From assembly GCF_054482525.1 (NCBI RefSeq), contig NZ_CM137006.1: 64,000 bases of DNA; one strand, written 5' to 3'. Position 1 is the first letter of the stretch. Every line of letters starts with the position of its first letter. Under the pieces are notes generated by a model, which was not told the DNA's origin, ran no database searches, and saw only the letters and a program-made list of their open reading frames with translations. A program made the position numbers and the translations under genes. Shown piece after piece: positions 53,201-61,993 of this stretch.

Positions 53201-53338
53201 CGTGTAATGGCTGCATGAAATAAACAATAAAATATAAATAACATTATCAGCCTGCCGACGGCTTGAAGAGAGTCACAGTATCTTGTGCAACATTATTGGA
53301 AAGCGTGAGGGGCGAGGTAGCGAAGCGGAAAAATGTTA

Positions 53339-53443
53339 AAAAAAAGCCCATCGTGGGAGATGGGCAAAGACTACACACAGCAATTCGTTGTTTCACTCAG
53401 GGGATTTAAGTCATTGATTGATTTATGGGTATGCGGTTTTTCG
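53339..53443 (-). ncRNA. rprA: sRNA RprA (3' ~69 nt canonical, 5' end divergent)
   Basis: Minus strand 53407->53339 reads AAAUCCCCUGAGUGAAACAACGAAUUGCUGUGUGUAGUCUUUGCCCAUCUCCCACGAUGGGCUUUUUUU (rpoS-pairing region plus terminator); the 5' end coordinate is extrapolated from the expected length. Confidence 0.7.
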
Positions 53444-53472
53444 GCATAAACCAAATTAAGCAAGGCTTGAAA

Positions 53473-54054
53473 ATGGACACACAAATTGCACACATATCGC
53501 ACACAAATAAAAAGGGGTATGTATGGCGCAAGCGTTATGAAAAACGCACGATTGAAATCATCCTACGCACCCGTGATAAATCAATTGCCATAAAAAGAGC
53601 GGCATCAATAACAATTCGCTATATGGAATTAAAATCACTTGACGTTCCATTTAAAGCAATGCTGGAAATGTTAAAAAAGTTTCGTGATGGTCTGATTACG
53701 TCACATGACATTGAGCGCTTAAGGTCGATTGCGATAGCTTCACAGGAAGCTCCACACGCCGCTGTAACCGCTTCGCCTATACAAAGTGTTGGCTATGATG
53801 TCAAAACCGCTCAGAAAGCCGCACAGGGGCATTCCCTTGGCGATGCTCAAAAAGTGTACTTTGGCGCCAACACCGAATGGAAAGAAAAAACCATCAAGGC
53901 TTATTCTGGTTGTATCGACCGCTTTATTTTATGGTGCGCTAATAAAAATATTCATACCGTGGAAGAAATAACGAAAGAGCATGTGATTTCATTTAAATCC
54001 AGCATGGATGAAGAAAAATTAGCCTCCATGACTAAATTTCGCATAATAATATGA
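53473..54054 (+). pseudogene. Tyrosine-recombinase (integrase)-like N-terminal fragment; catalytic domain absent
   Basis: ORF ends after a SAM-like core-binding segment (TIKAYSGCIDRFILWCANKNIHTVEEITKEHVISFKSSMDEEKLASMT); no downstream RHRY catalytic domain; start uncertain (53425/53473). Confidence 0.4.
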
Positions 54055-54362
54055 TTCGGGTTAGCATAACCAATACTTTTATTAAAGCCTATGTATGCAC
54101 CAATTTCTTTATACTTTAACTTAGTGAAATCTGAAATAATACTCAGTGGCTGCAATACGTTATGTCCATTGTGCGCCCCTTCATTAGCGCAAAATCCTGT
54201 ATTTGCAAACTGACCTTTATCACGCCAGATGAATCTATCAACGCCGCCACATACAGGACATGGTGTATGTTCATTTGGTTTAATATCAATTCCAAAATCA
54301 TTCATATGCACCAATGGATTCTTTTTAATATAATTATTCAAATCAGTAAAGAAATTAGCCAT
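53952..54362 (-). pseudogene. Primase N-terminal zinc-ribbon fragment (P4-alpha/T7-gp4-type CPxCGG..C), truncated
   Basis: HTPCPVCGGVDRFIWRDKGQFANTGFCANEGAH zinc-ribbon signature; ORF stops after about 135 aa and overlaps the integrase fragment on the opposite strand. Confidence 0.45.
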
Positions 54363-54681
54363 TATATTTGCTCCCGTATCGCCTTGCTGGATGCTTTGCA
54401 AAGAAATCAACGATATCTTGTTTGCGATACCAGATATAACCGTCTAATTCATGATGAATTTCTTGCGGAAATTCTTTAGGGTTAAAGCGTTTGGCGGCAT
54501 AAAACATTGGTTTAGTAACACCAGATAAAGCAATTGCATCATTGCCACACACAAGCCCTGTAAGTTGCACTTTCTGCGATTGTTCTTTTATCTGTGCCGC
54601 GATTAGCCTTTTATTCTCATTAACGTATTTTTCAATCTGTAGCTTACGCATTTTTTCGCGCATGTAATTTATATCGGTCAT
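54355..54681 (-). CDS. AlpA/excisionase-like DNA-binding protein
   Basis: 108-aa ORF; C-terminal segment TKPMFYAAKRFNPKEFPQEIHHELDGYIWYRKQDIVDFF resembles AlpA-family HTH. Confidence 0.5.
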   Translation of the reverse strand: MTDINYMREKMRKLQIEKYVNENKRLIAAQIKEQSQKVQLTGLVCGNDAIALSGVTKPMFYAAKRFNPKEFPQEIHHELDGYIWYRKQDIVDFFAKHPARRYGSKYNG

Positions 54682-54697
54682 TTTAGTATCCTATATA

Positions 54698-56200
54698 TTA
54701 AGTCATTATCTGTGCTGGTGGGGTAATGATATGAATTATCCCTCGATTATTCATAATGAATCTACATCGTTCAAGCCCTGTAATTGCTCGCTTTATATTA
54801 TTTGGCTGCATTTTATACTCAGTTTTTAATGCCTTCGTTAAATCGGATTCATGTACACAGCCATCAGCACTAAATTCCATTAACTGTATTATCATTTCTA
54901 AAACTCGTTCTTGTGCTGGTGCATTTTTCTTTTTTAACTCGCTCATATATGAGTCGTAAGCGAGAGTATTATTACGCGCAGCATTTTGAGTAAAATTAAC
55001 TCCTGCTTCATATGATTCTGCATTTACAGCGTTTTGCATTAATTGCTTATTTTGCTGTTGCGTTGTTAGTGGTTGCCGCTGTTGCGTGTGCATTTGCGCA
55101 TAATCATTTATCGGTGATTGCTGCATGATAAATGGTTCATCATTAGCTTGTTTGCGTTCTATTTTTCCTGCTGCAATTACTGGAGTTGGCCTATCAATAA
55201 ATACCAACGTCTTAGTATTGGCGTTTACCTGATAACCTTTTGCATTTTCTTCGGGATAATCGCATAATTCATTATTAATATCATGTAATTCACAGACGGT
55301 AATTCCGTTATCCGCTGTGCATAAATCAAATTGCATCACTGGTAATTTTGCAGCGCTACGGTTTTTTTCGATAGTGAGTGATACGGATAACCCAAAATCA
55401 TTACCCTGCATTTGCTCTAGTTTAATGACTGTATCAGAGTCATTTTTAAGGGTAATGGCTCCTTTCATACCTTTAGCCGCATCTTTGCCGCCGTGGTGAA
55501 CCATCAAGACAAAAGAATTTGTTTCTACTGCAATTCTTTTCAAAATCGAAATCAGCTTACGCATTGCAATAGCATCATTTTCATCAGGATTTTCCATATC
55601 CAAAATGGTTTTTCCATCAATGCTTTTTTTTGTGTAGTATGCCAAAAATGAAGAAAGCGTATCAAAACAAATGATGCCGCCTTTGTTATTGGTGATTTTA
55701 TTTACATCATTTATTATTCGATTCTGTATTTCTTTATCAAATAAGTTTATTTGTGGTGACAAGATGTGCATTCTGTCATTTTTAACGCCACTATTAAACT
55801 TATTAGACCACGCTGTATTTCGATCTTTGATTTCAACGCCTGTTTCACCATCAAAATAAAAAGCATGGCATTCTTTAGCAACTCGCAAACCAGCCCACGG
55901 TTTACCCTGTGCAACTCTGTTTAAAAGAGATAATGCCGCAAATGATTTGCCTGTGTTGGATTCACCATAAAGGAAGCCGACCTGTTTTCGGTTAAATAGA
56001 TTTTCAATTACAGGGCGTAACCGCTTTTCTGATTGCAATTGAATTTCAGCTAATTCAATTGCACACAATTCATCATTTATACCATCATATTCAGACCACT
56101 CACCGTAGTTGGCGGGTGCGTAATAATCAATCGCGAGAGTGTAATAATAATCAGGAATAGCAGACCAATCAATAAACATTCCTGTGCACATATCATTCAC
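54698..56200 (-). CDS. RepA-like/RecA-fold P-loop ATPase (replicative helicase-type) with C-terminal putative winged-helix domain
   Basis: 500-aa ORF; Walker A GESNTGKS, Walker B-like IICFDTLSS, LMVHHGGK; adjacent iteron array. Confidence 0.6.
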   Translation of the reverse strand: MNDMCTGMFIDWSAIPDYYYTLAIDYYAPANYGEWSEYDGINDELCAIELAEIQLQSEKRLRPVIENLFNRKQVGFLYGESNTGKSFAALSLLNRVAQGKPWAGLRVAKECHAFYFDGETGVEIKDRNTAWSNKFNSGVKNDRMHILSPQINLFDKEIQNRIINDVNKITNNKGGIICFDTLSSFLAYYTKKSIDGKTILDMENPDENDAIAMRKLISILKRIAVETNSFVLMVHHGGKDAAKGMKGAITLKNDSDTVIKLEQMQGNDFGLSVSLTIEKNRSAAKLPVMQFDLCTADNGITVCELHDINNELCDYPEENAKGYQVNANTKTLVFIDRPTPVIAAGKIERKQANDEPFIMQQSPINDYAQMHTQQRQPLTTQQQNKQLMQNAVNAESYEAGVNFTQNAARNNTLAYDSYMSELKKKNAPAQERVLEMIIQLMEFSADGCVHESDLTKALKTEYKMQPNNIKRAITGLERCRFIMNNRGIIHIITPPAQIMT

Positions 56201-56247
56201 CGTAATTTGGGTATTTAATTAAGAAAAATTCAATTACTTCTTCTTTT

Positions 56248-56400
56248 TTATATAGATGCTTTGTTTTTTTTGTTTTTATCGCAAGTAACTAAATGCTCTT
56301 TTGGAAATTCTTTAGGGTTAAAACGTTTAGCCATATAAAAAGCGGTTGAGCCAATTTTAGCCAAAAGTTGTGCTTCACGAGGTGTAATTAAGTCGCTCAT
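56248..56400 (-). pseudogene. Second, truncated AlpA-like copy (50 codons)
   Basis: MSDLITPREAQLLAKIGSTAFYMAKRFNPKEFPKE...; DNA about 56305-56340 is an imperfect duplicate of 54473-54510; ends in a poly-T/A tract. Confidence 0.35.
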
Positions 56401-56689
56401 GTAGGGTATCTCTTAGATGTATTCTGAGTGCGGTCATGGTAGGCGAGGGGAGGAATAGCGGCAAGCATTACCGGATATAGTAAGCACTACCAGCTAAAGT
56501 CTAACTAACTGTCAACAGATTGAGGCTAAAACCACTGTATGTAAATTCAATTTTAAAAATTAAAAATCATTCTGGCTTAACTAATTATGCTCAATTTAAA
56601 TTGAATCTGATAATAAAAAGAATCAATAAAATGGATTTAGTGATTTTTAGTTGGACGAAATCGTTCATTTTATGTGCATTGCTCGCTGG

Positions 56690-56925
56690 TGATAATTCAA
56701 CCAATCCATTCAACCTATTCGAATGGGTGGTGAATTTTTGACCGAATTAAATTCACCTGAATATTCACCGAATGATTCACCTGAATCATTCAGCCCTTCA
56801 TTCACCACGAAACCCAGGCGCGGCGGGGCTTACAGGCCGATTCATTCACCTGAATATTCACCTGAATATTCACCTGAATTATTCAACCAAAAATTCACCT
56901 TCATATTCACTCATTCACCTCTCTA
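56690..56925. repeat. Iteron array: at least 9 TTCACC hexamers, including tandem palindromic 12-mers ATTCACCTGAAT
   Basis: TTCACC at 56751, 56763, 56775, 56800, 56844, 56856, 56868, 56893, 56913; three exact tandem 12-mers at 56843-56878. Confidence 0.65.
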
Positions 56926-57236
56926 TAAATAAGCATTGGAATGCTTTTTATAGAGGTTGATGAATGAAGGTCGTTCAAGTGAATGAACTGTGAGTTGGGT
57001 AAACCCCTAGGGGTTGGGGGTGTTGTCGATTTGTGGTAAATTCCTTCTGCCAGCGTGAAAAAGGCGCTGGTGGGGATTTGCAGCCCCAAACAAACAAAAC
57101 CATTGGCAAGGAATTGCCGATGCGCGTGCGCACGTCAGTTATGGCGGTCACGGCGAGGGAGTCGAAAGGCTCGCCAGTTTTGTTTGTTTGCTGGTACTGC
57201 AAACCTCGTCGTGATCGTCACCACGGGGATGCATGT

Positions 57237-57488
57237 ATGCAGGAAACAGACTGGCACAAAGCGGATATTCTTGCCTCTTTAAAGAAAAAGAAAATCAGCA
57301 TGGCGGGATTATCCCGTGAACATGGTTTATCAAGTAGCACGTTGCTAAATGCACTTAGTAGAGAATGGCCTAGAGGCGAATTAATTATTGCTAATGCAAT
57401 TGGTGTGTCACCTCAAGAAATATGGCCTTCTAGGTATTTTGAAAAAGATGGCTCTCCAAAAAATCGTGTGATTCGTAAACCTGTTTAA
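57237..57488 (+). CDS. Ner-like DNA-binding protein (Mu Ner / Nlp family)
   Basis: 83 aa MQETDWHKADILASLKKKKISMAGLSREHGLSSSTLLNALSREWPRGELIIANAIGVSPQEIWPSRY matches the Ner family signature; upstream in-frame extension of track ORF judged non-coding. Confidence 0.7.
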   Translation: MQETDWHKADILASLKKKKISMAGLSREHGLSSSTLLNALSREWPRGELIIANAIGVSPQEIWPSRYFEKDGSPKNRVIRKPV

Positions 57489-57705
57489 ATAAGTCAATGC
57501 GTCTCTGATTAAAAGGGGCGCATTTTTGTTTTTACTGACTTGTTGCAATGTGGGATATGTTGCGCACGTGTGTGCGATAGTTGTTAATTGTTTTTTGTAC
57601 TAGTTAACAAATACGAATTTTCTGAGGGTGCTATTTTGGGTTTTAGCTGCGGCTTCGCCTTGCTGCCCTTCGGGCTGGTGGTGCAAGAAGAATGTTTGAA
57701 AACTT

Positions 57706-57751
57706 CCTTTTCTTTGCTTCACCAGCCCCGTAGGGGCGTGAGCGTAGCGAA
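57706..57751 (+). repeat. 46-bp direct repeat, copy 1 (identical to 61912-61957)
   Basis: ccttttctttgcttcaccagccccgtaggggcgtgagcgtagcgaa; contains hairpin GCCCC-GTA-GGGGC. Confidence 0.85.
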
Positions 57752-57849
57752 CCTAATCACTTTGATTTTGACACATATCGGTTCTATCATTTTCAGGAAA
57801 ATCATCATAGAATTATATAAAACATACGATTTTTAAGGTGAATTTTTAA

Positions 57850-59001
57850 ATGCACGAGAAAGCGCAAACAAAAATAAAAGATACTATTAGAGAAATACTA
57901 ATCACTCCAGCAATCGCTTTTACTGGTCGTGCAGGTCATTTTGATTTTTCATTATATGAAGTTTTAGCAAATGAGCTTAACAAAAGAAAGATAAAGTTTA
58001 AAATTGATAAATTATCATGTTGGATTATTTTTGATGGCGCAAAAAAACATTACTTTCAAGATAAATCAATTACTGACGCACAAGCGATAAATGATTTTGT
58101 GGATACGTTATGTAGTATTTACTGTGAAACACCTATGGATTACTCCATCGATTTTCACTTTAGAAATTTAAAAATCGATATCAACCCGATTGATTATGAG
58201 TTTGTTTCAATTAGAGCGGGTGAGGATATTGGTATTGGTTTGTTCGCTGAAAAAGAAAAGTATGCGATTGCGAGCATTAAAAAGAATGGCTATCTTTCAG
58301 GTGGTTATCCTAGCTCATTTATAAAATCGATTTTGCAAGATTTGAAAATCTTCATTTTTTTGATTAAAAGCATTAATTTGATTAAGACAGGAAAAACCAA
58401 TTTAGCATCCACGTTATTTCAATCGATGTCCGGTCATGCTGACACAATTAAGATTGATTGCGTTAATGTTAAATATCCTTGGATGAATAGCAGTGTCCAT
58501 ATTTCAGAGTCGGTAGGGAAATTTTTACACAACTTTATCTTCAATTATGAATTTGAAGAAGGCTACATTATAGAAAAAATAGATCATTCGCTTCAGCTAA
58601 TGAATGCAATAGTAAAAGATGAGTCAAAAGAAGCCTTGCGTATCAAGGCTGCAATTGATTGGTTGGTGCAATCTGAAATCACTGATGATGAAACCATGTC
58701 TTTTATTCAAATTTGCATGGGGCTTGAATCAATTTTTGGTGATGATGATTATGAGGGTGGCCTAACAAACATACTATCTGATAGATGCGCCTACTTAATA
58801 GGGAATAAAATTAAAGAGAGGAGATTTATAAAGGACACATTTAAAAAAATATATCAAGTTAGGTCAAAGATAGTGCATGGCGTAAGAAATCATTTATCAG
58901 ATGATGAATTATATTTTAGGCATTTAGCATATTCATATTTAGAGCGTTCTATTCTAAAAGAAATTCAAAATTTAGACCTGCAATCCCATCAGGCGACGTG
59001 A
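57850..59001 (+). CDS. Hypothetical 383-aa protein with C-terminal HEPN-like R-x4-H-G motif (candidate Abi-type RNase)
   Basis: Long AT-rich ORF with SD aaggtg 11 nt upstream; RSKIVHG at residues 338-344 (nt 58861-58881) in a helical C-terminal domain. Confidence 0.65.
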   Translation: MHEKAQTKIKDTIREILITPAIAFTGRAGHFDFSLYEVLANELNKRKIKFKIDKLSCWIIFDGAKKHYFQDKSITDAQAINDFVDTLCSIYCETPMDYSIDFHFRNLKIDINPIDYEFVSIRAGEDIGIGLFAEKEKYAIASIKKNGYLSGGYPSSFIKSILQDLKIFIFLIKSINLIKTGKTNLASTLFQSMSGHADTIKIDCVNVKYPWMNSSVHISESVGKFLHNFIFNYEFEEGYIIEKIDHSLQLMNAIVKDESKEALRIKAAIDWLVQSEITDDETMSFIQICMGLESIFGDDDYEGGLTNILSDRCAYLIGNKIKERRFIKDTFKKIYQVRSKIVHGVRNHLSDDELYFRHLAYSYLERSILKEIQNLDLQSHQAT

Positions 59002-59288
59002 AGCTTGTGCGCTTCATTATGGGGCTAGCCGCCATCAGGCAAGGCGATTGCATGTCTTTGCGCTTCGTCGCCTCCTGATGCGTTCTGTGAAGATGTCGAT
59101 CATTTAGTGAGCGCGGCGGATGTTGCTGATGGATAGTGTGGATGCAACTGAACCATACCGCGAAAAGTGGCAGGATTGCGCCGGAATCGTACCGCTAGCA
59201 GGTGTTGAGTGTAAGAAGTAGTGATTGGGTGAAATGAAGATAGAAGGCCGCATAGAGGCATACAACTAGCCTTATGCGGTTGGCTGGT

Positions 59289-59732
59289 TCAGCACTGGTA
59301 AAAGTTGGCGAGGTGTGGAATATGGCTGGTGGTGGTTTCGAAAGCCTTGAGGCGTCCATTTTTATCTTTTTTCAAGTAGAGCATTTTTAGTGCTGGTGGA
59401 AATACTGAATCCATAATTCCATAAACTCCCACATTTTCGTTTTCTTCTTTAAGCATTCCCCAATATTGATAACCATTTAATGCGCTATCATCAATGCCCG
59501 TTCCAACGCGCTTAATGTGGGCAAGATATCGGCCTTTTATCGTAAAGCTAAATGATTCATCACGTTCATTTGTGCAAGTGTAAAATCCATCATCGCTTTC
59601 ATTTATAACTTCAGATGCTTCACGATTTAATGAGTACTTGTCTAAGTTGTTTATGATGTCACTTCGCTGTGCGCATCCAGTCAAATTTAGAATGGTAAAA
59701 ATTAGTACAGAAGATGCAAGATATTTGTTCAT
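59289..59732 (-). CDS. Hypothetical lipoprotein (147 aa)
   Basis: MNKYLASSVLIFTILNLTGC signal peptide plus lipobox; start at internal ATG 59732. Confidence 0.6.
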   Translation of the reverse strand: MNKYLASSVLIFTILNLTGCAQRSDIINNLDKYSLNREASEVINESDDGFYTCTNERDESFSFTIKGRYLAHIKRVGTGIDDSALNGYQYWGMLKEENENVGVYGIMDSVFPPALKMLYLKKDKNGRLKAFETTTSHIPHLANFYQC

Positions 59733-59818
59733 TTTGATTATCCATATGAAAAGCAAGGTACTTAGATTAAATTACCCTGCTTAAGCAGTAATTAGCGGTT
59801 CCGTTAATAGAGGGTAGA

Positions 59819-60178
59819 TTATTTGTTAATTTGTTTTTTAGTGTGTGAGATAAAATTTCTAAGTAAATCTTTTTCAATTACAATTTCACATTTTAGGTTT
59901 TGGCTATCGACCGCATCAATTCTATCAAACCAAAACATTAATTCCTGGCTTGCATCGCATTTACGTTTGAATTTAATTGCCCTGCCGAATTTTTCACTTA
60001 AAGAATCATCATCACATAAAAAATAAATTTTATTATTAATGGTGATTTGAATTAAATATGTCTTCCTCGTTAGGTAATCTAACCTTTCGTTAGCTTTCAG
60101 TAAGTTAGCTTCAGCTTGTTTGATGCGTATAAGAGCATCCTCTTTGCTTAAAGGGGATGTATTGACAGACTTGATCAT
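59819..60178 (-). CDS. Hypothetical protein (119 aa), upstream partner of the lipoprotein gene
   Basis: ORF co-oriented with and 62 bp upstream of the lipoprotein gene; no recognisable family. Confidence 0.5.
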   Translation of the reverse strand: MIKSVNTSPLSKEDALIRIKQAEANLLKANERLDYLTRKTYLIQITINNKIYFLCDDDSLSEKFGRAIKFKRKCDASQELMFWFDRIDAVDSQNLKCEIVIEKDLLRNFISHTKKQINK

Positions 60179-60287
60179 AATTTAATCCTTTGGTTAAGAT
60201 TCATCAAAAATATGCCATAAATAGCCTTGAAGGTTGTGTGGAATACATATTATGATAGCTTCATCTAATCAGCAAGGGGAATAATAG

Positions 60288-60443
60288 ATGCCTTCTAAAC
60301 GTGTTATATGCTCACTTGATGAGCAAGAGTTAGATATTCTCGAAAAATATAAATTACATTATAAAAATATGCATGGCGTAAAATTAAACAGAACGGCAAT
60401 TATCAAAATGTTGATTAGTCGTCTATCAAAAGAAATTCAATAA
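60288..60443 (+). CDS. Small putative ribbon-helix-helix (CopG/Arc-like) regulator, 51 aa
   Basis: MPSKRVICSLDEQELDILEKYKLHYKNMHGVKLNRTAIIKMLISRLSKEIQ: beta-strand then two helices pattern; divergent from the minus-strand pair; below ORF-track cutoff, found by own reading. Confidence 0.45.
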   Translation: MPSKRVICSLDEQELDILEKYKLHYKNMHGVKLNRTAIIKMLISRLSKEIQ

Positions 60444-60495
60444 TAATTCTAATTACCAATTAATTTAAACTTCACATAATTAAAGAGGCAACTCT

Positions 60496-60810
60496 ATGCA
60501 CACTCTTTTTTCTAAATTTAAAAACAGGAAAATTAAAATGTATCAACCACGTTATAAAAGCAGAATGATTGACGATAATGAATATAATCAGGTGCTTCAA
60601 TCGAGAATGCAAAATCTTTTAAATCAATATAATAATGAGGTTTCAAACTTAACCCGCATTGGTGTTACAAATTTGGGTTTCGGCCGATGGGATAATGGAG
60701 AGAGCAAAATCAATAACCACGTTAATAAAGTAAGTGAGACTTTGGAAAAGATGCAATCTACGCAAGCCTTGATTGATGCTCTTGCAAATGAAATTACACA
60801 AACTAATTAA
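60496..60810 (+). CDS. Hypothetical small protein A (104 aa)
   Basis: ORF with SD aaagagg 8 nt upstream; AT-rich. Confidence 0.5.
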   Translation: MHTLFSKFKNRKIKMYQPRYKSRMIDDNEYNQVLQSRMQNLLNQYNNEVSNLTRIGVTNLGFGRWDNGESKINNHVNKVSETLEKMQSTQALIDALANEITQTN

Positions 60811-60894
60811 TCGAATGGGGGATGCTTTAAATGGTAATCGCAATCATGGTTGTAATGTTTTGGGCTTTCCTGATTCTTAAAGAGGAAATGAAAT

Positions 60895-61179
60895 ATGGTT
60901 AAATTTGGAGTGTTTTACCATCATGCATGGGGTGATGGTAAAAAGGAAATCCCGCCACCTGATTTAAATTACATCCGAACCGATCCACATAAAAATAATG
61001 AAATTGCTTTAGATGTTTTTGATTCAAGAATGGACGCACAAAAACGCGCTGATTTACTAAATTCACGCATGGCAAAAAATCAAACTGGTCAGCATTATGT
61101 TGCGCCAACAACGCAAGAAACCAAAACGGCTCAAAAGCGCTTTAAGTTTCCTTGTACTAGCATTTATGGGTGGAAATGA
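60895..61179 (+). CDS. Hypothetical small protein B (94 aa)
   Basis: ORF with SD aagagga; N-terminus KFGVFYHHAWGDGKKEIPPPD resembles that of protein C. Confidence 0.5.
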   Translation: MVKFGVFYHHAWGDGKKEIPPPDLNYIRTDPHKNNEIALDVFDSRMDAQKRADLLNSRMAKNQTGQHYVAPTTQETKTAQKRFKFPCTSIYGWK

Positions 61180-61181
61180 AA

Positions 61182-61556
61182 ATGAGTAAACAATTCGGTG
61201 TTTTCTTTTGGCGAAAAGGTGACGCTATTACCGATATCCCGTCAGATAAAAATGTTGCAAATCGCGGAGTAAAGCCTAAGCGCATTTTTTCAGATTATAT
61301 TGATGGAATGCGATATAAAGATAAAATGAATGCAACAATTCCAGCGGCGCAAAAAGGTAAATATGAATATGTATTAGCGGAAATTGTTGAACCAGACCCG
61401 AACAATACAAAGGTGTTGTTTAAATCTGGAAATTTAACAGAAGCATTAAGGGCGAAGCGACAAACAACCGAACAAATCAACCGAAATAAAATTGATGCAA
61501 TGATTAAAGAAGCCGCACACGATTACCTTTACACTATTACAGGAATGGAAAAATGA
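61182..61556 (+). CDS. Hypothetical small protein C (about 125 aa; start at ATG 61182 or 61176)
   Basis: QFGVFFWRKGDAITDIPSDKN N-terminus paralogous to B; abuts stop of B. Confidence 0.5.
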   Translation: MSKQFGVFFWRKGDAITDIPSDKNVANRGVKPKRIFSDYIDGMRYKDKMNATIPAAQKGKYEYVLAEIVEPDPNNTKVLFKSGNLTEALRAKRQTTEQINRNKIDAMIKEAAHDYLYTITGMEK

Positions 61557-61852
61557 TTATTGACGAGCGATTTATTAAATGGTCAATGGTGCTGGTGGAG
61601 GCCGGAAAGCCATCACCCAGCCTCGCGGGGCTTTATAAAGGAAACACTAAAGGATTAATCTTTTATAAAACACGTGAATTGGCATCAAATGCAGCCACTA
61701 AACGGAATGAGCAATTAGCAGGAACTAAATCAACCAGCCGATTTAAAATCATTAAATTGCATGACGCAGAAGCACAACAGAAACATGATTTTCAGTTAAA
61801 ACAGGAACGCCAGCGCCGCGATGCACGCCATATGCGCCGATTTGGTTTCTAA
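61553..61852 (+). CDS. Hypothetical small protein D (99 aa), basic C-terminus
   Basis: Start ATG overlaps stop of C (ATGA), indicating translational coupling. Confidence 0.5.
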   Translation: MIIDERFIKWSMVLVEAGKPSPSLAGLYKGNTKGLIFYKTRELASNAATKRNEQLAGTKSTSRFKIIKLHDAEAQQKHDFQLKQERQRRDARHMRRFGF

Positions 61853-61911
61853 ATATAACTCAATAACTCAACCAATGGTGATGTTAAAGAATAAGGTGGC
61901 CTTAAATTTCA

Positions 61912-61957
61912 CCTTTTCTTTGCTTCACCAGCCCCGTAGGGGCGTGAGCGTAGCGAA
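61912..61957 (+). repeat. 46-bp direct repeat, copy 2 (identical to 57706-57751)
   Basis: Same 46-mer, 37 bp upstream of the tape-measure-like ORF. Confidence 0.85.
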
Positions 61958-61993
61958 ATAAGTAACATTAATATCAAATCAGAGGTAAATAAA

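Follow-up and report, generated by a model that had tools for sequence, protein, structure and literature searches.

A Predicted Single-Chain HEPN Protein of ApeA-Like Design Encoded by a Decayed Integrative Island at rprA

Introduction

ApeA (Gao et al. 2020), whose mechanism was treated in two preprints (bioRxiv 10.64898/2026.01.26.701840 and 10.64898/2026.03.20.713152), is mostly helical and comprises an N-terminal, a Mid and a HEPN domain, the last of which is split and contains large insertions, and exchange of its catalytic arginine (R521A in Ec1ApeA, R502A in Ec2ApeA) abolishes defence. Domains of the HEPN superfamily are defined by an R-x4-6-H motif, a polar residue right after the arginine, a conserved acidic residue in helix 2 and a metal-independent RNase activity that requires the arginine and the histidine, while non-catalytic HEPN domains typically have no Rx4-6H (PMC3710099, Anantharaman et al. 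2013). In this study, we analysed a stretch of 64,000 nucleotides of contig NZ_CM137006.1 (assembly GCF_054482525.1), called the window in the following, and in particular a gene at positions 57850–59001, for which an earlier reading of the letters alone (the sequence-only reading) had suggested a single-gene HEPN defence protein. We describe a two-domain protein that is of the same kind of design as ApeA but, by sequence and architecture, stands outside the ApeA family.

The Gene and Its Protein

The following features of the gene and its product were assigned:
57850–59001, plus strand: gene for the 383-amino-acid (aa) two-domain protein, an open reading frame (ORF) with ATG start, identical to RefSeq WP_000544521.1
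57850–58545, plus strand: N-terminal alpha/beta domain, aa 1–232, from the secondary structure of the AlphaFold2 model; putative sensor or regulatory domain
58546–58617, plus strand: connecting helix, aa 233–256, the most variable segment (helix 237–256 in the model)
58618–58974, plus strand: HEPN module, aa 257–375, with helices H1 (260–277), H2 (281–296, with E293), an insert helix (305–317, with D311, R312 and C313), H3 (321–342) and H4 (351–374)
58861–58881, plus strand: predicted catalytic motif R338-S-K-I-V-H343-G344, from residue invariance and alignment with the catalytic residues of ApeA

The ORF had been proposed at exactly this place and was confirmed. Its locus was 100% identical in three complete E. 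coli genomes, its product already bears the RefSeq name "HEPN domain-containing", and a literature search on the accession found nothing specific. Searching 5.8 billion proteins with the full protein revealed 58 homolog clusters from Enterobacteriaceae, Pseudomonas and a metagenome-assembled genome (MAG) of Geobacteraceae. The gene is genuine and subject to purifying selection, with a ratio of nonsynonymous to synonymous substitution rates (dN/dS) of ~0.12 in both protein halves compared to the allele of island FREC5 (see below). In regard to its composition, the ORF displayed a GC content of 32.2%, compared with 37.6% for the surrounding island and 48.7% for the remaining window. The gene had been placed in the most AT-rich part of its surroundings; AT-rich it is, although its 1-kb bin (58001–59000, 0.324) ranks only second after 60001–61000 (0.318).

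The C-Terminal HEPN Module

The heptapeptide RSKIVHG at residues 338–344 is the sole R-x4-6-H in the protein and was confirmed in the helical setting in which it had been noticed, at the end of helix 321–342 of the AlphaFold2 model. Shuffling of the protein produced an R-x4-6-H in 71% of cases (mean 1.17 per shuffle) and an RxxxxHG in 1.8%, which bears out the caveat of the sequence-only reading that the motif could be coincidental: alone it is not above chance and proves nothing by itself. It gains weight only because it is invariant across the family and properly placed in the fold. Thus, an alignment of 39 sequences revealed as invariant, among others, W271, E293, G297, D311, R312, C313, R324, Y335, R338, S339, H343 and G344. 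In an alignment of 63 more distant sequences, which reaches down to ~20% identity (mean column identity 22%), E293, R312, R324, Y335, R338, S339 and H343 were still invariant, and G344, D311 and C313 were conserved to at least 90%. S339, invariant in both alignments, is the polar residue that the HEPN definition wants directly after the arginine, and E293 in helix 281–296 corresponds to the second conserved acidic residue of helix 2 in that definition. Searching 1.84 billion representative proteins with a profile of the C-terminal 150 aa resulted in 8,460 clusters at E ≤ 1e-3, among them 212 at E < 1e-30 (representative clusters at 50% identity); among the best 150 matches listed, most proteins were ~400 aa long and carried the domain C-terminally.

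The AlphaFold2 model (mean pLDDT 86, pTM 0.84) placed the motif at the C-terminal end of helix 321–342, followed by a loop (343–350) and H4 (351–374), with the additional helix 305–317, carrying D311 and R312, inserted between H2 and H3. The predicted fold and the placement of the motif fit the HEPN definition, as had been anticipated for the helices around R338 and H343. Foldseek against the PDB nonetheless returned only noise (pentameric ion channels at a TM score of ~0.1), which is a weak point of the HEPN assignment; against AFDB50 it revealed full-length matches to proteins of ~400 aa with TM scores up to 0.86 over 390–430 columns. Searches of PDB sequences with the single protein or with two profiles gave no match, 38 close and 62 distant relatives scanned with Pfam did not provide a bridge to a named HEPN family, and NCBIfam and PADLOC scans of ten distant relatives resulted only in marginal matches to DzbB. 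Judged from conservation and predicted structure, the C-terminal module very probably represents a HEPN domain with catalytic function, and we hold fold and catalytic competence together with high confidence.

Sequence Comparison with ApeA

For this comparison, full-length Ec1ApeA (601 aa, WP_000706972.1) and Ec2ApeA (583 aa, WP_032180471.1) were recovered from complete genomes via the DNA given in the supplement of an ApeA preprint. The PADLOC model for ApeA (PDLC02157) detected both as positive controls (E = 0 and 1.3e-12, respectively), while it did not match the protein of the window at E ≤ 1 and missed ten distant relatives as well. Alignment of our family alignments with a 23-sequence ApeA alignment by hhalign gave a probability of 14.6–16.2% over 75 columns only, and reciprocal hidden Markov model scores between the two families did not exceed 14 bits, compared with 218 and 868 bits within the families. 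Pfam HEPN_Apea (PF18739) matched neither the protein nor its 38 close and 62 distant relatives, a negative without weight since real ApeA was missed too (0 of 23 at E ≤ 1e-3). No homology to ApeA was detectable beyond the catalytic half of the HEPN domain. In that half, BLAST and hhalign aligned R338 with the catalytic R521 of Ec1ApeA and R338/H343 with R502/H507 of Ec2ApeA; Y335, R338 and H343 fall on the essential catalytic arginine of ApeA and its helix. Based on the PADLOC miss, the low hhalign probability and the different architecture, the protein does not belong to the ApeA family by sequence and architecture.

The N-Terminal Domain and Its Alleles

The N-terminal 250 aa had been called unassignable, which holds true, as they matched nothing in Pfam, NCBIfam, PADLOC or PDB sequences. 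Mean pairwise identity within the family was 21% for the N-terminal domain, 14% for the connecting helix and 52% for the HEPN module, and in the N-terminal domain only P95 and G147 were invariant. The N-terminal domain evolves much faster than the HEPN module. Its profile was nevertheless also matched by 160 of 161 full-length relatives that had been retrieved via the HEPN module alone, and a database search with it revealed only proteins of the same architecture, never the domain alone or on another effector. The two parts always occur together, and a modular sensor shared with other effectors was rejected on the basis of this search.

Comparison with two intact islands at the same insertion site, FREC5 and S10 (described below), revealed a striking distribution of divergence. 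Megablast had suggested that the gene is absent from S10; its slot was found to hold a HEPN allele of 401 aa. Protein identities between the window and S10 were as follows:
Ner-like repressor: 92%
HEPN protein: 41% overall, with a near-identical C-terminal module and largely diverged N-terminal 250 aa
Downstream 119-aa gene: 87%

Compared to FREC5, the flanking DNA was 93–100% identical and the ORF 58–79%. Altogether, the natural alleles displayed 98%, 72% (FREC5), 41% (S10) and 38% (a decayed E. coli island) identity to the protein of the window. Synonymous divergence (dS) was 0.87–1.75 in the HEPN gene versus 0.19–0.29 in the flanking genes. Since dS lies far above that of the flanks and dN/dS is ~0.12, old alleles were recombined into a conserved backbone rather than diverging in place, and positive selection in place was not supported as the cause for the same reasons. 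Such patterns are typical of genes facing rapidly changing partners. This allele swapping fits an immune sensor and is no proof of one.

Genomic Contexts

Eight different genomic contexts of the family were compared and shared no neighbouring gene; the HEPN gene stands alone, with no conserved partner, as the sequence-only reading had assumed. In E. coli it was found in intact rprA islands and in a gutted island devoid of replication genes, which consists only of integrase fragments, the HEPN gene, an insertion sequence (IS) and a gene for a PIN_12 protein. In a K. aerogenes rprA island it directly follows the integrase gene, and in a common P. aeruginosa element it starts 18 nt after the integrase gene. 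Another Pseudomonas neighbourhood contained PAAR, CTD9, MC5 and AAA_23 conflict genes, and in the Geobacteraceae MAG the gene was standalone. Moreover, it was identified in SSU5-type phage-plasmids of Enterobacter and Klebsiella as a lone opposite-strand gene between a partition gene and the tail-fibre module, and homologs also matched similar Cronobacter plasmids of ~100–110 kb (matches only). Thus, the gene travels on islands, in integrase-adjacent slots and on phage-plasmids.

The rprA Island

The surroundings of the gene had been taken for a prophage remnant and are instead a decayed integrative, satellite-like island:
53457–64000, no strand: decayed integrative, satellite-like island at rprA, with rprA at both ends, extending ~1 kb beyond the end of the window

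The island has a size of ~11.5 kb, lies between ydiL and ydiK and is inserted at the small RNA gene rprA (53336–53456, minus strand), of which 19KM1776, FREC5 and S10 display a second copy at the far end of the island. We found no paper describing rprA as an integration site or an island at this site. In regard to the rprA copies (53336–53456, minus strand, in the window; 19978–20085 in locus L001), the integrase-side copy scored ~80 bits and the distal one 114–119 bits; the lower score on the integrase side is as expected for a hybrid attachment site. The islands of FREC5 and S10 are intact and encode an integrase, a GIY-YIG nuclease, a 330-aa primase, an AAA or DUF3987 helicase, AlpA-like proteins, the Ner-like repressor, the HEPN protein, several small proteins and a tape-measure-like protein. 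The island of the window retained, at 53425–54410, only a 209-aa N-terminal integrase fragment and a zinc-finger primase fragment, and is therefore probably immobile. Integrase, replication module and a flanking target-site duplication, features of satellites, are all present, the first two in truncated form in the window.

A moron cassette between repeats had also been proposed and is contradicted by the fixed position of the HEPN gene, which occupies the same slot in every rprA island variant examined. The idea of a variable cargo hotspot was likewise rejected, as S10 carries its 41%-identical allele at the same place.

Several other genes of the island family deserve mention. The tape-measure-like protein (662 aa, 61994–63982, plus strand) matched tail tape-measure families of PHROG with E-values down to 3.5e-21; its gene is the sole recognisable virion gene of the island, and between variants the protein has conserved ends and a highly divergent middle. 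Two AlpA-like genes (54355–54681 and 56248–56400, both minus strand) share a 44-bp repeat that is 84% identical (54461–54504 and 56297–56340) and encodes AKRFNPKEFP in both; judged by sequence they are apparently paralogous regulators located on either side of the helicase gene. A convergent gene downstream of the HEPN gene (59289–59756, minus strand), annotated as hypothetical and conserved in position among island variants, encodes a lipoprotein-type signal (…LNLTGC…). Outside the window, a PIN_12 protein of ~381 aa is encoded at the right end of related rprA islands (L003, 15967–17112; L009, 14138–15292; L004, 10661–11806), and since its gene survives even in the gutted island, it represents a second candidate nuclease or defence gene of the island family. 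In E. coli PCN033 and SCU-102, region 57000–60000 was matched at 100% in two pieces spanning 4,958 bp, which indicates an insertion of ~1.96 kb, possibly an IS, within this 3-kb stretch.

Regulatory Elements Upstream of the Gene

Annotation of the region in front of the HEPN gene, together with the distant repeat copy, revealed the following elements:
57137–57225, plus strand: C4-type antisense (immunity) RNA, Rfam RF01695, 65.8 bits (gathering score 45), full length
57237–57488, plus strand: gene for a Ner-like helix-turn-helix (HTH) repressor, phrog_769 transcriptional repressor, E 2e-30
57496–57534, plus strand: terminator-like hairpin with T-run behind the HTH gene, an 11-bp stem followed by TTTGTTTTTA
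57650–57770, plus strand: structured leader including repeat copy 1, minimum free energy −50.2 kcal/mol, z −4.75, with 0 of 200 shuffles folding as well
57762–57790, plus strand: sigma-70-like promoter candidate TTGATT-17-TATCAT, a consensus match only
61912–61957, plus strand: copy 2 of the 46-bp repeat, 36 nt upstream of the tape-measure-like gene

Two identical 46-bp repeats had been described as bracketing the gene. The copies (57706–57751 and 61912–61957) are indeed exact, and none would be expected by chance, but they do not enclose a cassette: copy 1 lies 99 nt upstream of the HEPN start codon, whereas copy 2 is separated from the stop codon by 2.9 kb and seven ORFs and directly precedes the tape-measure-like gene. 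Copy 2 is unchanged in FREC5, and in the S10 island only the HEPN-side copy was detected. The repeat occurred in only 5 of 5,426 E. coli genomes and had no match in the phage collection, so that a phage-derived element was rejected; a target of the C4 RNA was rejected too, as no convincing complementarity was found and the sole strong target is a 14-mer at 57087–57100. The repeat is found in front of the two genes that diverge most among those compared between the islands, namely the HEPN and the tape-measure-like gene (41% and 37% protein identity to S10, respectively, versus 87–92% for two neighbouring genes). It may act as a regulatory element common to both or mark a breakpoint of recombination.

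In FREC5, double changes preserve the pairing of two small GC hairpins of the leader. Promoter-like sites were not enriched in the region compared to shuffles. The terminator-like hairpin suggests, as far as its sequence can tell, that the HEPN gene is a separate transcription unit. The C4 RNA, which is also present in the islands of FREC5 and S10, lies directly upstream of the Ner-like repressor gene, and the 14-mer, an exact complement of its hairpin loop, is located 37 nt further upstream, an arrangement similar to immI of phage P1. A further complement of the loop, 9–10 nt in length, falls on codons 5–8 of the HEPN ORF (57864–57873) and is at chance level. Loci of the HEPN gene in K. aerogenes, P. 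aeruginosa and phage-plasmids lacked the Ner-like gene, and the C4 RNA was absent from other loci with the HEPN gene. Both were rejected as obligate partner or antitoxin, being missing at most other loci, and the Ner-like gene is part of the regulatory module of the island. In the intergenic region from which the minus-strand replication operon and the C4/HTH/HEPN genes diverge, we also identified an iteron-like repeat array (56751–56911) with the palindromic unit ATTCACCTGAAT, which is probably an origin of replication or an operator array of the island.

Possible Function of the Protein

The protein has been predicted before. In DefensePredictor (Science 2026, PMC13092281), Table S10, a list of 1,041 clusters of the E. 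coli pangenome whose proteins are uncharacterised and predicted to act in defence, contains its exact accession with a mean log-odds of 10.25 (stringent cutoff 4), without a DefenseFinder homolog and without a Foldseek match, and ApeA was the best remote match for a relative in Table S4. That this is a novel HEPN defence gene has therefore been proposed in print before, as a prediction. The novelty suggested by the sequence-only reading was overstated in view of the RefSeq name and the Table S10 entry.

Because of its mobile-element contexts, the allele swapping and the machine-learning prediction for the exact protein, a defence role is plausible, and we regard a role in defence or exclusion as likely. 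In its specific form, we lean towards an infection-triggered single-chain HEPN RNase that would act in the manner of ApeA as an anti-phage or exclusion effector on mobile elements. By this analogy, two HEPN modules would pair to form a composite R338/H343 active site, which the N-terminal domain would hold inactive; an infection cue sensed via this domain would release the active site, and the active enzyme would cut RNA, with tRNA anticodon loops as the best precedent, and stop phage production. RNase activity, dimerisation, autoinhibition, trigger, RNA target and phage protection are what we infer here, and tRNA, again by analogy, is a possible rather than a probable target.

Several observations weigh against such a role. 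The N-terminal domain was never seen elsewhere, so that calling it a sensor is an argument solely by analogy. The HEPN gene is a fixed core component of rprA islands and not variable cargo, which fits a role in the life cycle of the island as well. The protein had no match in the Pfam, NCBIfam and PADLOC libraries, its sole match in a PHROGs scan was a family of unknown function (E 1e-3), and no homolog was found in 50,697 phage genomes. The DefensePredictor score partly derives from neighbouring integrase-type genes and is not fully independent of the argument from context. Besides, none of the 118 units cloned in that study carries the signature of the family (PMC13092281).

The main rival, in our view an unlikely one, is that the protein is a factor of the island's own life cycle, a HEPN RNase used at induction, e.g., for host shut-off or decay of helper-phage transcripts. 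Every intact rprA island examined has the gene in the same slot, behind the C4 RNA and the gene of the Ner-like repressor, which speaks for this rival, and so does the exact 46-bp upstream element that the gene has in common with the tape-measure-like gene, the other highly divergent one, which hints at co-regulation of two phage-facing functions, although the S10 island shows the HEPN-side copy only. Yet the family also occurs in elements without satellite features, i.e., P. aeruginosa integrase-adjacent slots, phage-plasmids and the Geobacteraceae MAG, and retention of the gene in gutted islands that have no replication genes and only fragmented or truncated integrase genes suggests a benefit independent of island mobility. 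Less likely still is that the protein serves as the toxin of an addiction module, or of one resembling toxin-antitoxin systems, by which the mobile element is stabilised; its unrecognised antidote would then be a small RNA, the structured leader or the N-terminal domain by way of autoinhibition. No MNT or other conserved neighbour was found across contexts, the C4 RNA is missing at most loci with the HEPN gene, and its 9-mer match is no better than chance, as by our estimate the island should contain about three such matches; furthermore, the tyrosine of the HepT motif RX4HXY is absent (G344, V345), and a conserved N-terminal domain of 232 aa is atypical for such a toxin.

The remaining rivals concern the protein itself. 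A HEPN-like helical bundle with a non-nuclease role, e.g., nucleotide or ligand binding or regulation, is very improbable: non-catalytic HEPN domains typically lose the Rx4-6H, while here the arginine, the following polar residue, the histidine and the helix-2 glutamate are all invariant in 63 sequences and align with proven catalytic residues of ApeA. As to a spurious ORF or a chance motif, long ORFs do arise in AT-rich DNA and an R-x4-6-H is common in shuffles of the protein, but strong purifying selection, hundreds of homologs that keep the motif residues invariant and a confident fold prediction have already refuted this explanation.

Implications

Should an anti-phage role be confirmed, a compact HEPN defence family of ~380–400 aa would join the single-protein RNase systems modelled on ApeA. 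At least 212 clusters (50% identity) in Gammaproteobacteria and beyond match its HEPN profile strongly (E < 1e-30). The family is frequent in Enterobacteriaceae and Pseudomonas, with satellite-like islands and phage-plasmids as its vehicles. The rprA islands offer a natural experiment in this regard, displaying a nearly constant HEPN module and very different N-terminal domains in otherwise near-identical islands, so that allele swaps should reveal the part that sets phage specificity and trigger. To our knowledge, how infection is sensed is unresolved for most single-protein defence systems. More tentatively, and short of an even expectation, the protein might be the founding member of a family of single-chain HEPN immune RNases that is widespread and separate from ApeA, whose hypervariable N-terminal domain would read a phage-specific cue directly and whose specificity would be reshuffled by swaps of old alleles in satellite-like islands and phage-plasmids; if so, the series of alleles found in a single island backbone would amount to an existing map of trigger specificity.

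Comparison with Known Systems

Several described systems resemble the protein in part. With HepT of HEPN-MNT (PDB 5yep, 7ae2, 8xdj) and HEPN proteins of the HI0074/TTHA0636 type, sequence identity was only 8–14%. In contrast to HEPN-MNT, no MNT antitoxin gene was found near the gene of the window or in the other contexts examined, and the protein possesses an N-terminal extension of 256 aa. The tyrosine of RX4HXY, the residue AMPylated by MNT, is lacking from its motif RSKIVHGV. PD-T7-4 (DUF4145), DS-11 (CBS and HEPN, from DefensePredictor) and DzbB of Dazbog are similar in that a HEPN effector is combined with a regulatory part, by fusion or by pairing. PD-T7-4 was the best HHblits match in DefensePredictor (probability 55.9, 18% coverage) and two distant relatives matched the DzbB model marginally (E 2.5e-3 and 0.037), in both cases below significance; the protein itself, however, revealed no match to PADLOC models, Pfam DUF4145 or CBS.

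In regard to its setting, the island is comparable to the defence hotspots of P4 and P2, where different defence systems are exchanged (PMC9122126). In both cases an AT-rich accessory gene resides on an integrative, satellite-like element, the island of the type found in the window having an integrase, a primase/helicase module, AlpA-like genes and a C4/CI-type immunity RNA. Whereas differing systems replace each other in P4 and P2, the rprA islands keep one family of which only the alleles swap. A satellite-like island can accordingly hold a fixed defence gene, if it is one, that is diversified via allele exchange rather than by exchange of whole systems at a hotspot.

The closest likeness is that to ApeA. 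Both are single genes without partner, in which non-catalytic domains are followed by a C-terminal HEPN domain of the catalytic type on the same chain, and both are carried by mobile elements, Ec2ApeA by a P2-like prophage. The catalytic-helix signature [KR]-I-Y-x-x-R-[SN]-x-I-x-H is common to both (KIYQVRSKIVH in the protein of the window, RIYKVRNKITH in Ec1ApeA, RIYRTRNLIVH in Ec2ApeA) and is preceded by L-x-[DE]-R-x-x-Y in each, W-I-A-x-E-S-L of ApeA is the equivalent of the helix-2 region around E293, and UniProt calls several full-length structural neighbours of the protein "Apea-like HEPN". On the other hand, the protein comprises 383 aa compared to the 583–601 aa of ApeA, and its predicted HEPN domain is compact with one short insert helix behind an alpha/beta N-terminal domain, where that of ApeA is split. 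A decameric ring built of dimers, a ligand pocket located between N-terminal and HEPN domains, and tRNA (cut in the anticodon) or phage RNA as targets are features known for ApeA only. Altogether, the comparison with known systems classifies the protein as a predicted single-protein HEPN defence design distinct from ApeA, unsurprising to the specialist, and as a sound experimental candidate with a convenient allele series.

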